64,000 bases of DNA from contig JAIOYV010000008.1 in NCBI GenBank assembly GCA_021740905.1, positions 9,543-73,542 on the forward strand, written 5' to 3'. Below the pieces are notes generated by a model. It saw only the letters and a program-made list of their open reading frames with translations. It was not told where the DNA came from and searched no databases. The stretch comes from Bacteroidales bacterium. Its GTDB lineage: Bacteria > Bacteroidota > Bacteroidia > Bacteroidales > M50B96. The stretch's first letter is position 1. Each line of letters begins with the position of its first letter. The translations under genes were made by a program, and so were the position numbers. Positions 12,963 to 57,898 of the stretch are shown piece by piece.

Positions 12963-14063
12963 TCAATCCTCGATAATACGCATCAGGTCGTTGTTGATAT
13001 AGACATTCTCGTTGCCTATCTTTTTTAATTCAAGTACATTTATTTCGCATAGTTGGTCAAGATATTTTCGTGCCGTGTTCCGGCTTTTTATTTTGTCGCC
13101 AACCACCTGAATGGCTTTTATGTAGGGTTGAGTGAAAATGGCTTCGAGGAGAAAAAATGGGATATTGGGAAGTTTCTGTTCAACATACAGCCTGGTCGAT
13201 TGAAATTGATCCATTATTTCATCAATCTTGAAAATGGTGTAGTTGGCAGTTTCTTTTAAGGCCAAAAGCATAAACTTCAGCCATCTTTCCCACGATCCAA
13301 GTGTTGATACTGAGTTCAACAAATGATAATAGTCGTCTTTGTTGCGAATAATGTATTTGCTTAGGTATAAGATGGGAAATTTCAGGATGTCTTTTTTTAT
13401 AAGGATAAGGACGTTCAGGATTCGACCTGTTCTGCCATTGCCGTCCGAGAATGGATGAATGGCTTCGAATTGGTAATGGGCAATGGCCATTTTCAGCAAT
13501 GGGTCGTACGGATATTTCTCATCATCGTTTATAAAATCAAGAAGGTTTTGATAAAGCTTTACGATCAAACCTTCATTATTTGGAGGTGTATATACCACCT
13601 TGCCACTGGTAAGGCTCGATCCTCCTTTTACAATCCTCACATTCGCTTGTGGTGAACGAACGCCCTGAGAAGTTTCCTTTATTTTTTGGTAAATACTGAT
13701 CAGGGTGTTGAAATCGAGTTCCGTTTTATTTGCCAGTGAATTTATTCCCTCCCATAGCGATTCACGATATCTCAGTACCTCTTTGGCGGCAGGGCTTATA
13801 TTCGTGTCGGTGGTTGAAAGGGCTTTGTAAAGCTCATCCTCGGTGGTGAAGATATTTTCGATTTCGGAACTCGACTTTGCCTCCTTCAAGGCAATGGTGT
13901 TTACCAGCATCAGAGGGTTTGGCAATCGTTGCGACATGCCATCTAACTTCCCCAAAGACCTATTGGCCTGAGACAAAAGAAGAAGAACCTCCTTCGTGAG
14001 TATTTTATCTTCGCTGGGAGGAAGCAATGGTAAGTCGTTGAATGGTTTTTCGCGGTCGAACAT
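12963..14063 (-). CDS. Fic family protein (AMPylation/Doc-like)
   Basis: Fic motif HPFSDGNGRTGR. Start placed at ATG 14063 (MFDREKPF...). The TTG-extended start at 14090 was rejected. Confidence 0.85.
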   Translation of the reverse strand: MFDREKPFNDLPLLPPSEDKILTKEVLLLLSQANRSLGKLDGMSQRLPNPLMLVNTIALKEAKSSSEIENIFTTEDELYKALSTTDTNISPAAKEVLRYRESLWEGINSLANKTELDFNTLISIYQKIKETSQGVRSPQANVRIVKGGSSLTSGKVVYTPPNNEGLIVKLYQNLLDFINDDEKYPYDPLLKMAIAHYQFEAIHPFSDGNGRTGRILNVLILIKKDILKFPILYLSKYIIRNKDDYYHLLNSVSTLGSWERWLKFMLLALKETANYTIFKIDEIMDQFQSTRLYVEQKLPNIPFFLLEAIFTQPYIKAIQVVGDKIKSRNTARKYLDQLCEINVLELKKIGNENVYINNDLMRIIED

Positions 14064-14075
14064 ATTTTTTCGTTT

Positions 14076-14240
14076 GCACAAATATAGCAATAATTTGTGC
14101 GAACGGTGATTTTCCTGTCAAACTATGACCATATTTTAACCGTCTGCACAAAAATCAGAATAATTTGTGCAGACCCCTGTTTTTGTGTCAAACAATGACA
14201 AGTTTTATCTTGATCGCACAATATTGATCATTTTTTGTGC
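14076..14240. promoter_or_regulatory. 3 x 70-bp direct repeats each containing a 25-bp palindrome GCACAA-N13-TTGTGC, immediately upstream of fic
   Basis: Palindromes at 14076-14100, 14146-14170 and 14216-14240, with an exact 70-bp period. Units 1 and 2 also carry TGTCAAAC(T/A)ATGAC palindromes. Confidence 0.6.
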
Positions 14241-14352
14241 GAAGGCTGATTTTCCATTCTAGCACTAAGATAGAATCACTATAAAATAATTAATAAGACC
14301 ATTCAAGGTTTGATATTATAAATCCAGAAAGAGGAAAACAATTGTAGAAGTT

Positions 14353-15870
14353 TTACTTCCCAATCTTCTCCACCCCAGTCTTCAACCTACTCAAAGTTTC
14401 TTCCTTACCAATCACCTCAATAATATCGAACATGTGGGGACCTTTCGGTTCTCCTACAATACAAAGTCGGAAAGCATTCATCACAGCGCCCATTCCAAGT
14501 TCTTTTTCGGTGATCCAGGCTTTTACTTTTTCTTCGGTGTTGGAGGAAGAAAAATCCTCGGTGTTGGCCAAAACATTAGCCAGTTCTTGCATCAAAGCCG
14601 GGGTATTTTCTTTCCAATTCTTTTTCACAGCCCTGTTATCGTAATCGGCAGGTGCTTCAAAAAAGAAAGAGGCTTGGTCCCAAATTTCATGGACAAACTG
14701 CACTCGTTCTTTCACAAAACCAACTATCCTCTCCACCTTTCCAAGCACGGCTTCAATCCCTTTTTCTTTTAAGATGATTGAAAAGAGCTTGGCAATTTCA
14801 GCATTATCTTTTTTCTGAAGCCATTGCTGGTTGAACCATTTGGCTTTTTCAGGATCGAAACGCGAACCCGATTTGCCCACTTTTTCCAACGAGAAACTCT
14901 GAACCAATTCGTCAAGGTTGAAAATTTCTTGTTCGGTGCCAGGGTTCCAGCCAAGCAAAGCAAGCAAGTTTACAAATGCCTCGGCAAAATAACCCGATTC
15001 ACGATAGCCCATAAAAACCTCATCATCGGCCGTGGTCCATTCCGTAGGGAACACAGGGAAACCCATCTTGTCGCCATCGCGCTTGCTGAGTTTTCCCTTG
15101 CCTGTTGGTTTCAATAATAAAGGTAAATGAGCATACTCTGGTGAATCCCATCCAAAGGCCCGGTACAAAAGAACGTGCAAAGGCAGGGATGGCAGCCACT
15201 CTTCACCCCGGATCACATGCGAAATTTCCATCAGGTGGTCGTCGACAATGTTGGCCAGGTGGTATGTAGGCATTCCATCCGATTTGAATAACACCTTGTC
15301 GTCGAGAGTCGTTGTATTTACTTTTACTTCTCCCCGGATAATGTCATTCATCACAATTTCTTGATTTTCGGGCATTTTAAAACGGAGCACAAAAGGCTCA
15401 CCGGCATCGATTTTTTGCTTCACCAATTCTTCTGGCAAAACCAACGAATTGTTTAATTTTCCTCTTGTGGAGGTATCATAAGTAAAAGTAAGCTTTTCAG
15501 CCTCGTATTCTTCGCGCATTTTGTCAAGTTCTTCGGGAGTGTCAAAAGCAAAATAGGCATTGCCCGATTGAATTAACTGCTCGGCATATTGAAGATAGAT
15601 TTCTTTCCTTTCCGACTGCCTGTAAGGGCCATAATTTCCACCCTCTAAAATTCCTTCATCAAATTTTATCCCGCACCAGGCCAACGAATCCATTATGTAT
15701 TCCTCGGCACCCGGAACGAAACGGGTTTGGTCGGTATCTTCGATGCGAAGGATAAAATCGCCACCGTTCTTTTTGGCAAACAAATAATTGAAAAGGGCCG
15801 TGCGCACACCGCCTATATGCAAAGGCCCCGTTGGGCTGGGGGCAAATCGTACCCGTACTTTCTGTGACAT
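14353..15870 (-). CDS. gltX: glutamate--tRNA ligase
   Basis: Class I HIGH motif PTGPLHIGG and KMSKS-like LSKR. Start set at [12 protein letters not shown] (ATG complement at 15870). Confidence 0.9.
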
Positions 15871-16157
15871 ATTTAAAATTTTCGGCAAAGATAGGGAAAT
15901 GGGTGGATGTTGGAATTGAAAACCAAAAAACTCAGAATACTCCATATTCATCAGCATAAAGCTCTTTTTCTGACACAGATTTACGCATAAAACACGGATT
16001 TGGAAATAAGATATTTTTAAGAATGGACATAGTGTCAACCCTATTTATAAATGCACAAGTCCTGAACCCTGAGCCTTGAACCATCGGCCTACTTTTTCGT
16101 TTTCCTGATTGAATATTAAAATGTTTCTTTGCACTTTATATAAATTGATTATTTGAA

Positions 16158-24563: not shown

Positions 24564-25628
24564 TTAATCTGTGAATTTGTGGCATTCTTCAAGTACCATT
24601 TTAAGCAAAGGTATTTTAATCAATTGCATACCATCCTCTTCGATGTATTCGAAGGGCAAATCGGAAAAATACAGGTACGATGTTTTCATCCTTTCGAGCC
24701 GGTTCGAATAGTCATGTCCGGGTCCGAGCCTTTTGTTCAAGGGATGTTTAATTTGAAGGTAATCATCATTCAGTGATACATCTATCGTGAGGCCCTGATG
24801 CTGATCAATAATGCTGGTCCGGCAGGCAATTTCGAGTAAACTCAAAAGGGCACAGGGTATCAACAGTTTTTCCGATTGTTTTTTGCTGATATTTTGAACA
24901 AGATTGATTTGCCCTGAATATCGGGTATTTAAAATATAGAGAAGCGAATCAACCAGTTTCAATTCCTCCCGTAAAGGCACAAGGTCGTTGTTTCGGTTGT
25001 GCAGACAGTAGCGATAAAACGCCGACAAATGCCCGATGAACTCATCGGCTTCTTTTTTCGAGCGGTGGATCAACCCAATAAGGCTTTCAAAACTGTCGAA
25101 AAGCAAGCCCGGGTTTACTTCGTTTTTAAAACTCTCTAGGTCGGCCTCAAGGTTTTTTCGGAGCAAGGTTTCTGCATTTATCTTTACTTCATTTTTCTTA
25201 TCAAGGAAAAAAAGGCTTAGGTGGATAAGGTTGTACAACAAGCTGGTTAGTAAAAACATGGCGTTGAAAGTAATCAACTCGGTGCGGAAAGAGGTAAAGC
25301 CCACCACAAACCGGAAATAGAACCACAAGCCCAAACTGACAATCAGGATGCTGAGAAGAAACCCTGCCCCAAATTGCAGGATGATGTGCCAGGTATGGCG
25401 ATTTTGTCGGGTCATAATTTTACCAATCAACAGGTTGATGGCACGAATAGCCTCGAACTGGATATAGCACAATGCAATGGTCACGAAAATTTCCTGGCTA
25501 AAGAAATTCTCTTTAAGCCATGTCAACGAATCGAAAATCAATAGAATAAGGATATAGACCACCGAGCCGTAAAGCATGGGTGCAATAAGCCTGAAAACAA
25601 TGCGGTTCAGAAAAATATCAGGCTTCAT
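24564..25628 (-). CDS. sensor histidine kinase (LytS/His_kinase type)
   Basis: Multi-transmembrane N-terminus with a C-terminal His-kinase internal region and ATPase region. Overlaps the next kinase by 11 nt. Confidence 0.7.
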   Translation of the reverse strand: MKPDIFLNRIVFRLIAPMLYGSVVYILILLIFDSLTWLKENFFSQEIFVTIALCYIQFEAIRAINLLIGKIMTRQNRHTWHIILQFGAGFLLSILIVSLGLWFYFRFVVGFTSFRTELITFNAMFLLTSLLYNLIHLSLFFLDKKNEVKINAETLLRKNLEADLESFKNEVNPGLLFDSFESLIGLIHRSKKEADEFIGHLSAFYRYCLHNRNNDLVPLREELKLVDSLLYILNTRYSGQINLVQNISKKQSEKLLIPCALLSLLEIACRTSIIDQHQGLTIDVSLNDDYLQIKHPLNKRLGPGHDYSNRLERMKTSYLYFSDLPFEYIEEDGMQLIKIPLLKMVLEECHKFTD

Positions 25629-47469: not shown

Positions 47470-47545
47470 GTAATGCCGACTGCATACTCCAGACTGTGAA
47501 CTACCTACTGTGGACTGAAGTCTGCCTACTGTGGACTGCCCCCCT
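47470..47545 (-). repeat. solo copy of the 28.9-kb inverted-repeat arm, with internal duplication
   Basis: Its reverse complement shares cttcagtccacag, cagtaggcag and cagtct(c/g)gag blocks with 28925-28975. CTACTGTGGACTG occurs twice in tandem. Confidence 0.4.
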
Positions 47546-56537: not shown

Positions 56538-57898
56538 GCACTATAAAGGATGTTTTTTATGAAATGCCATGCCTGACAGAAAGTAGTCCAATCATTAATG
56601 GTCAGGTTATTAGACGAAAATGGTTTAAATATGCTGATAAAAGGCATATAGGCCAATATTTGTATAAATTTATTCAGTATAATCATTCAGCACTTAGTTT
56701 TCTTGGTGTTACTCCATCTATTATTGGTAGTGATCAGAATATTGGAATTTCGTTCAGAACAACTGAATTTATAGGGGCAATCCCATTAAGAGCACCTGAT
56801 ACTGGGAAACAAATTGGAGATTTTATAGTATCACCAAGATTTATTGGTAAAGACAGATACACTGACTATATTGAAATATTAAATGTACTTGATGCCGAAA
56901 TAAATCCTTCATTTATTGATAGTCTTCCATTAACATCAGGTCGTAATTATAGACCCCCTGATTATTTAGAGGCAATTAAATTCATTGAAAGTCTTGAAGC
57001 CTTATTAAAAATGAAATGGAATAAATTTGATGTCTCAACAAAATACAGTTCAAATCCATCCGGTCAAATTAAATGGAAACAATACATCGACAATTCATAT
57101 AAAGTTGAACAAACAATTAAATTTCCTACACGAAAAAATATACTACACGAAAAACATATTGAGTATTCACAAATTCGCTATGTATTTGATTTATCTAAAG
57201 ATATTTTAAAGTCAACAAATACTCCACAATCGATTAAACTTACAATCTCAAATCGCCTTGATTCGATTACCGAAAAACTTCATTTTCTTAATCCCATTGA
57301 AACATCAAACATTCAAATTAGGGCATTTGATAATCCGTCAGTTAAGAAATGTAAAGAACATGCGAATAAAATCCTTAATAAATTAGTTTCAGAAAGTACG
57401 GCATGGCGTGTTGATTACTCTGATGTGTTTGAAAAATTAGTTCAACGAGTTTTTATTGAATCAACAAAATTAATAGGAGGCCGGTTGCTCTGCAATCAAA
57501 AAATTAAATCTCAACTAAATAACAAGTATTCTTGGGAGTTAAAATATCTTGAACCCGATGCAATTTTCCAAAAGGGCAACAATATTTTTTACATCGATGC
57601 AAAATATAAGTCTCATTTATTTAATAAGTATGATCAAAGTAGAACATTAAAAGAAGATCATCGGAAAGACTTACATCAAATTATTGCCTATTCCTCTTTC
57701 AATATACTTTTGAACAAAGTTAGCTTCTTATGTTTTCCATCTAATCGAATAGAAATAAAAGATACAACATATATAAATTCATTGAACAATTCAAATATTA
57801 CTATTAAGTTAGTCGGAATCCCAATAAAGAAGGATTATCTGGAAGATGCAGCTAAAATGATTGCTTCTGAAATTAATAATATTGTAAGGACAAATTAA
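56534..57898 (+). CDS. McrC-like nuclease subunit
   Basis: ATGA start/stop overlap with the McrB-like gene. C-terminal PD-(D/E)xK-like motif YIDAKYK, 454 aa. Confidence 0.65.
   Translation: MSTIKDVFYEMPCLTESSPIINGQVIRRKWFKYADKRHIGQYLYKFIQYNHSALSFLGVTPSIIGSDQNIGISFRTTEFIGAIPLRAPDTGKQIGDFIVSPRFIGKDRYTDYIEILNVLDAEINPSFIDSLPLTSGRNYRPPDYLEAIKFIESLEALLKMKWNKFDVSTKYSSNPSGQIKWKQYIDNSYKVEQTIKFPTRKNILHEKHIEYSQIRYVFDLSKDILKSTNTPQSIKLTISNRLDSITEKLHFLNPIETSNIQIRAFDNPSVKKCKEHANKILNKLVSESTAWRVDYSDVFEKLVQRVFIESTKLIGGRLLCNQKIKSQLNNKYSWELKYLEPDAIFQKGNNIFYIDAKYKSHLFNKYDQSRTLKEDHRKDLHQIIAYSSFNILLNKVSFLCFPSNRIEIKDTTYINSLNNSNITIKLVGIPIKKDYLEDAAKMIASEINNIVRTN

Follow-up and report, generated by a model that had tools for sequence, protein, structure and literature searches.

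The question raised by this locus is why a single fic gene should be preceded by three evenly spaced palindromes, and which protein would use them. In the window (the whole 64-kb stretch of DNA analysed here), the intergenic region between the gltX stop codon (14353, minus strand) and the fic ATG (14063, minus strand) runs from 14064 to 14352, and within it we found three copies of GCACAA-N13-TTGTGC, here designated O1 to O3 (Table 1). An earlier reading made from the letters alone (hereafter the sequence-only reading) had described these palindromes, their exact period (70 bp from start to start, twice) and the 12-bp gap between the first of them and the fic ATG, all of which was found as claimed, with fic on the minus strand. 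The pattern gave a mean of 0.13 matches in shuffled sequence, 0/100 shuffles reached three, and no further GCACAA-N13-TTGTGC was present elsewhere in the 64-kb window. Around the invariant hexamers, complementarity extended in O1 to 13-nt arms (14071-14105; 92% complementary), in O2 to a perfect 11 bp (14142-14174) and in O3 to 8 bp (14214-14242). The three 70-bp units aligned without gaps with a mean column identity of 78% (73% over 66 nt between units 1 and 2); pairwise identity among the repeats was 72-84%, and the intervening 'spacers' were homologous to one another. The array went unreported by Tandem Repeats Finder because its units are too diverged. The sequence-only reading had also placed the sites seven helical turns apart; 70 bp is instead 6.7 turns of relaxed B-DNA, and makes seven turns only with a helical repeat of about 10.0-10.15 bp.

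Two minor observations concern repeats elsewhere in the window. When the spacer was relaxed to 5-25 nt, a single extra match appeared, a GCACAA-N14-TTGTGC at 24977-25002 with a G+C-rich spacer and none of the unit's flanking context, which is probably due to chance. Tandem Repeats Finder reported short tandem repeats at 47492-47538 (period 21, 2.2 copies) and 57126-57159 (period 17, 1.9 copies).

We then examined the protein encoded downstream of the array. Three Pfam domains scored above their cut-offs, Fic_N (PF13784), Fic (PF02661) and SoFic-like_C (PF21248), which is a winged helix-turn-helix (wHTH), and all three are shared with SoFic of Shewanella oneidensis (SO_4266, mloA). SoFic is a full-length homologue with ~40% identity: phmmer matched residues 4-360 to SoFic chains (E 1e-75 to 1e-77), and an AlphaFold2 monomer model (pLDDT 81) was matched by Foldseek to SoFic 3zcn/3eqx at TM 0.88. 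The catalytic motif HPFSDGNGR (residues 203-211) fits HPFx[D/E]GN[G/K]R, with columns invariant in the homologue alignment, and the inhibitory motif [S/T]xxxE[G/N] is present within Fic as S65-SEI-E69-N70, aligned with SSEIEN of SoFic. By these motifs the protein is assigned to class II, like SoFic and CccR, and with an intramolecular inhibitory motif no antitoxin gene is therefore expected. The sequence-only reading had noted that no antitoxin gene accompanies fic and had treated this as a puzzle; the absence stands, as no conserved small ORF of the class I FicT/FicA type lies beside fic in the window or at homologous loci, and the puzzle does not, given the motif inside Fic. The predicted wHTH recognition helix spans residues 328-340, beginning S327-R-N-T-A-R-K-Y-L. 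Homologue N-termini and a 366-aa database entry (P0001) place the conserved start at ATG 14063 and not at TTG 14090, the start given by the ORF lister. The N-termini of many database homologues (383-386 aa) read through the operator, as does the TTG 14090 start in the window; these extensions look like start-codon misannotations, because the conserved ATG lies 12-18 nt after the palindrome.

The main promoter element of Bacteroidota is the -7 box TAnnTTTGY (PMC12632263). On both strands of 14064-14352, TAnnTTTG matched once only, inside O1 (TATATTTG). The sequence-only reading had allowed that the fic promoter might map elsewhere, and the sole intergenic match lies within its first palindrome. 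The three sites are not equivalent, as only the proximal one overlaps a -7 box; across genomes, TAnnTTTG was found in 12/14 proximal units but in 0/13 distal ones (Fisher p 6e-6, on counts that are not independent events given the common ancestry of units and of loci), which sets aside tandem duplicated promoters as an identity for the array. The G of the fic -7 box lies 16 nt from the ATG. A TATCTTTG at 15886-15893 (minus strand) likewise lies 16 nt before the gltX ATG at 15870, and the equal distances suggest very short leaders in the source genome. No TTTG -33 element occurs at the canonical 19-21 nt from the fic -7 box, and the fic promoter is therefore assigned by its -7 box alone. A scan of the intergenic region with the sigma-70 consensus, which is ill-suited to Bacteroidota promoters, returned only weak promoter-like matches (9/12).

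Table 1. Features of the fic locus, in window coordinates.
Feature	Position	Strand	Remarks
fic gene, 366 aa	12963..14063	-	ORF and translation; predicted SoFic-family class II Fic
O1, proximal operator palindrome (putative)	14076..14100		GCACAA-N13-TTGTGC; ends 12 nt before ATG
Putative -7 promoter box TATATTTG	14079..14086	-	Made up of the final 5 nt of the O1 spacer and the TTG at the start of the ATG-proximal arm
Box 1	14114..14122	-	TTTGACAGG on the fic strand, then an AAAAT tract; ~15 nt upstream of the O1 left arm
O2, second operator palindrome (putative)	14146..14170		GCACAA-N13-TTGTGC; 70 bp from O1; without -7 box
Box 2	14185..14192	-	TTTGACAC on the fic strand; register as in box 1
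O3, third operator palindrome (putative)	14216..14240		GCACAA-N13-TTGTGC; 140 bp from O1; without -7 box; accompanying box degenerate

Whether Fic orthologues elsewhere carry the same array, a check that the sequence-only reading had proposed, could be answered from homologous loci. All distinct loci encoding a Fic of at least 61% identity (15/15; orthologues 61-80% identity) carried one to three copies of the palindrome: one copy in 3, two in 10 and three in 2, these last being the window and its closest relative (L001, 80% identity), the only other locus with a third unit in matching register. The proximal copy began 37-43 nt and ended 12-18 nt before the ATG, the end position holding at 14/14 distinct orthologue loci. 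Although the units have diverged, every inter-unit interval in the GCACAA clade (15/15) was 70 bp (8) or 71 bp (7). The genes around fic varied: gltX and PHP in the window, and at other loci BNR/AAA_14, BNR-Sortilin/LGT, URO-D/epimerase, UvrD, PolA, YceG, ABC and AraC. The array was likewise present where the upstream gene was divergent or different, and across the homologous 9-kb loci copies stood solely upstream of fic. The array goes with fic, whatever the surrounding genes.

A DNA pattern scan of 185,579 species genomes (one per species), in which true units were sorted out by a flank-context score, agreed with this linkage: matches with unit-like flanks comprised 16 Fic-adjacent loci, one of them cut by a contig end with its remaining 100 nt encoding a Fic N-terminus, vs two clear orphans. 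With no other copy in 64 kb and the scan units linked to fic, the 70-bp unit is not the widespread, fic-unrelated genome repeat that the sequence-only reading had considered. The same palindrome was also found in two Firmicutes MAGs (Fic 37-38% identity), where it overlaps TTGAYT-N17-TAAAAT promoters at their -35/-10 elements. There was no phage association; viral contigs gave one Fic relative only, of the TGTCAA type.

Most matches in the pattern scan were unrelated, comprising coding repeats in DUF1016-like ORFs, Clostridia hairpins and cyanobacterial coding sequence. At seven loci (L005, L011, L087, L089, L096, L097 and L112) the pattern matched a repeated coding motif (...VQVPLAQ...) within DUF1016/YhcG-like ORFs of Bacteroidota and Ignavibacteria, unrelated to fic, and a moderately scoring non-Fic match (L065) was set aside as an inter-gene hairpin. 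Both orphans have the box and the palindrome without an adjoining fic: one (L102, 1047-1071) lies 350 nt from a DUF2975-like/XRE gene pair, and the other (L015, 409-433) abuts a tRNA-like sequence. Either could be what is left of a lost fic cassette, or an additional target.

As to the protein that reads the palindromes, the half-site differs between sister subclades, and it does so in step with substitutions in the first residues of the wHTH recognition helix. The helix SRNTA(R/S/T)KYL pairs with GCACAA (GCACAA-N13-TTGTGC), S(L/V)NTAKKYL with TGTCAA-N13-TTGACA, and SRTTSTKYM with GTACAT-N11-ATGTnC. The sister subclades have a common layout: the proximal palindrome stands ~15 nt from the ATG and includes a -7 box, and another copy lies 68-71 bp further upstream. 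For two homologues the operator was predicted from the helix alone and then found, as GTACAT-type sites 71 bp apart (P0080) and TGTCAA-type sites 69 bp apart (P0099). By this comparison, residues 328, 329 and 331 could form a recognition code that specifies GCACAA, TGTCAA or GTACAT. The units also bear what is, as judged from their alignment, the signature of a protein site rather than of a selected hairpin: invariant arms and a spacer fixed in length and free in sequence (83% A+T). More distant homologues mostly have other palindromes with wide spacing: 35/59 had perfect inverted repeat arms of at least 8 bp upstream vs 4.7 expected from shuffles. A 52%-identical homologue (L206) has four TGTCAA-type palindromes at 2355-2487, spaced 39, 29 and 40 bp and not arranged as a simple 70-bp array; its proximal palindrome again carries TATATTTG.

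Each unit contains a second conserved element. The sequence-only reading had seen TGTCAAAC(T/A)ATGAC palindromes in units 1 and 2, and this sequence is indeed present at 14116 and 14186; it is palindromic only as GTCA-N5-TGAC, and across genomes the conserved part is TTTGACAG(G) on the fic strand only, so that a one-sided TTTGACAGGAAAAT box, not a palindrome, is the conserved feature. The TTTGACAGGAAAAT box lies ~15 nt upstream of each palindrome (consensus of 26 units), and the box 1 consensus is tTTGACaGgAAAa (13 proximal units). This box remains TTGACA in the GCACAA clade and also in the subclade in which the half-site became TGTCAA; it therefore does not follow the recognition helix, and its independence is seen in the lack of any co-switch with the half-site. 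The strongly conserved TTTGACAG box is not explained by a model of Fic self-repression. We considered it as a standard -33 element and rejected this, as it sits 32 nt from the -7 box, which is too far; a second promoter using it as -33 was likewise rejected, there being no TAnnTTTG at the right distance.

Close precedents exist for a Fic protein that binds its own promoter. CccR of Yersinia pseudotuberculosis is a class II Fic with an HTH that, as a dimer, represses its own gene from a palindrome at the -35/-10 region; the evidence comprises a footprint, EMSA, a lacZ fusion and a dimer mutant, and its DNA-binding helices are reported to lie 70 Å apart (PMC9755527). Like the window Fic, it unites in a single polypeptide the Fic domain, an intramolecular inhibitory helix and, at the C-terminus, a DNA-binding domain, and like O1, to judge from sequence comparison, its palindrome has widely separated half-sites overlapping its own core promoter. 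CccR acts as a dimer with negative autoregulation, which for the window Fic we propose from comparison only. The two also differ: CccR matches the window protein over the Fic core only (E 2.5e-10; fold TM 0.57), it is a T6SS effector, whereas nothing suggests this for the window Fic, and its evidence is experimental, whereas that for the window is comparative. Its operator is one AGATAATCAT-N26-ATGATAATCT, in contrast to three GCACAA-N13-TTGTGC copies 70 bp apart, and with both half-site and spacing different the window element was rejected as a CccR operator itself.

SoFic binds as a dimer to the 100 bp immediately upstream of its own gene, and it depends on the dimer for AMPylation as well as for DNA binding (bioRxiv 10.64898/2026.07.09.737422). 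In SoFic the helix AKRQTASVYL and a promoter 8-mer, ATGTCGAT (five copies), differ from SRNTARKYL and GCACAA in the window; unlike the window, the SoFic half-sites are not arranged as a simple 70-bp array, and the EF-Tu target is known for SoFic only. CbFic2 of Coxiella burnetii binds random DNA, which there affects the activity of the enzyme and not transcription (PMC10628234). Like the window Fic it combines a dimerisation helix, Fic and wHTH, and its DNA binding is coupled to dimerisation (PMC10628234), as would be the case for the window Fic. CbFic2 was, however, studied with random DNA, no specific site is known for it, its role is modification of host histone H3 and not autoregulation, and its fold matches the window protein at TM 0.58 only. 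By analogy, regulation of enzyme activity by DNA binding is a possible additional role for the window Fic.

We consider it likely that 14064-14255 is the promoter-operator of fic, at which a Fic dimer bound to O1 represses the gene while O2 and O3 act as auxiliary operators. The sequence-only reading had proposed an operator array serving fic and autoregulation by the wHTH of Fic itself, and comparative evidence and published precedent both support an array that serves fic and is probably bound by this domain. In the proposed mechanism, the dimer would set its two C-terminal winged-helix domains on both arms of GCACAA-N13-TTGTGC, whose half-site centres lie 19 bp (~65 Å) apart. Since O1 contains the -7 box, a dimer bound there would cover the box and exclude RNA polymerase, and fic would thereby repress itself. 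O2 and O3, 70 and 140 bp upstream, would serve as auxiliary operators that raise local occupancy, probably with cooperative repression, and the outcome would be a potentially toxic AMP-transferase held at a low, buffered level. We infer Fic as the binder, repression as the effect and the cooperativity of the distal sites.

Auxiliary sites are a feature of classical multi-operator repressor systems such as lac O1/O2/O3, gal OE/OI and lambda OR1-3. As in the window array, one operator lies over the promoter and extra sites at fixed distances are without promoter function, which suggests cooperativity here too. In the window the proposed repressor differs from these in being also an enzyme, encoded by the gene that it would regulate, and the spacing differs in being short (70-71 bp) and a non-integer number of 10.5-bp turns. 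Simple same-face looping between the operators is therefore not obviously favoured. The spacing is kept across subclades whose half-sites have switched, which would argue for a stereospecific dimer-dimer contact and cooperative repression.

Several other explanations of the array were weighed against self-repression by Fic. The palindromes might be operators of a different, unlinked host transcription factor, with Fic not the binder. The TTTGACAG box, which ignores changes in the Fic helix, lends some weight to this, as part of the unit must be constrained by something else. An unlinked factor, however, would leave it unexplained that fic takes the array along into unrelated neighbourhoods and a second phylum while no other neighbouring gene is conserved, that the half-sites switch with the Fic recognition helix and both blind predictions held, and that the window has no other copy, and we regard such a factor as distinctly improbable. 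An activity-centred explanation, in which DNA binding mainly controls the enzyme and phased sites set the oligomeric state of Fic and thereby its AMPylase/deAMPylase balance, draws on CbFic2, where DNA binding induces the dimer and switches activity, on the need for the SoFic dimer in both AMPylation and DNA binding, and on the fact that several evenly spaced sites exceed what is needed to occlude one promoter. Against it, one chromosomal array would have room for only some three dimers, little in comparison with any enzyme pool; the proximal site is built specifically over the -7 box; and CccR shows direct autorepression. We hold this explanation to be improbable, together with a sub-variant in which the units are duplicated promoters, which the lack of a -7 box in every distal unit contradicts.

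The palindromes might also be selected as structural RNA or DNA hairpins, whether read-through terminators or insulators after gltX, a 5'-leader structure or a REP/MITE-like palindromic repeat. All three are predicted to fold as hairpins, folding of the region is more stable than that of shuffled sequence (z -3.9 for the fic strand and -5.3 for the other), and the array does sit downstream of gltX. In addition, flank positions +/-2 and +/-3 are complementary in 23/26 units vs ~18.6 when permuted, a difference that shared ancestry may inflate, with two-sided flank changes that include T:A to C:G and T:A to A:T. Yet the arms keep one sequence and do not co-vary, and spacer length does not change; the array recurs whichever gene lies upstream and is not dispersed in the window; and O1 overlaps the -7 box and so would be largely untranscribed. 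We found no terminator-like site in 14064-14352 on either strand and no U-tract after the stems on the fic strand; intrinsic terminators were rejected on this ground together with the 9-13-nt loops and A+T-rich stems. An Rfam scan of 13800-14600 at E up to 10 gave sub-threshold matches only (best uup, 19.4 vs 36.8 bits, E 0.45). A purely structural origin is thus, in our judgement, highly improbable, while some hairpin or cruciform role for the palindromes is possible. Three further identities were considered and rejected: dispersed extragenic palindromes of the REP/BIME/MITE kind, with no further copies in 64 kb and copies at the 9-kb loci only upstream of fic; a CRISPR array or remnant (25-nt repeat, 45-nt spacer), whose repeats would be just 72-84% identical and whose 'spacers' are mutually homologous; and, by inspection, invertible-promoter inverted repeats, as arms of 6-13 bp only 13 bp apart are too small to invert.

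Returning to self-repression by Fic, the register of the array admits a bolder extension. The 70-71-bp interval corresponds to seven turns at 10.0-10.15 bp per turn, as in protein-wrapped DNA, and is kept in three half-site subclades, so that a wrapped complex is conceivable. The array could then nucleate a higher-order Fic-DNA complex, with the upstream DNA acting as the buffering 'antitoxin' of a one-gene toxin-regulator cassette and a helix-to-half-site recognition code alongside, a combination that we think rather unlikely. Were the wrapped complex real, the degree to which O1-O3 are occupied would reflect how much dimer is present, the dimer being the AMPylation-competent form in SoFic. 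Were the recognition code real, operators would be predictable across the SoFic family, the prediction for SoFic itself being ATGTCGAT.

Self-repression is already known for related Fic proteins; what is newly described here is the sequence of the site and its 70-bp spacing. Neither GCACAA-N13-TTGTGC, nor the correspondence of helix and half-site, nor a 70-71-bp multi-operator register was found in the literature searched. By comparison, the locus appears to work like that of CccR, and its protein appears to be a clear orthologue-level relative of SoFic. The wHTH-Fic architecture is represented by ~1,800 proteins in InterPro (bioRxiv 10.64898/2026.07.09.737422), for which one operator has so far been mapped (CccR) and SoFic binding has been narrowed to a 100-bp fragment. 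To these the locus and its relatives add a promoter model and a defined site of 25 bp for a Bacteroidota clade, natural specificity switches that would pin recognition to three helix positions, and a conserved multi-operator geometry of 70-71 bp for which single-operator models do not account. If confirmed, the locus would show by what means a toxin-like enzyme encoded by one gene is restrained where there is no antitoxin gene.

The operator of SoFic can be predicted in the same way. In the published 300-bp SoFic promoter fragment (Table S2, bioRxiv 10.64898/2026.07.09.737422) we found five exact ATGTCGAT/ATCGACAT 8-mers, at about -137, -107, -68, -57 and -28 of mloA, and these fall into the tested fragments as three in F1 (100 bp, best bound), two in F2 (middle) and none in F3 (distal). 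On this basis, ATGTCGAT is the predicted SoFic operator half-site. Five metagenomic genes whose helix is identical to that of SoFic (AKRQTASVYLKQL; L133, L137, L139, L152 and L154) have the same half-site upstream, in (ATA)TGTCGA palindromes.
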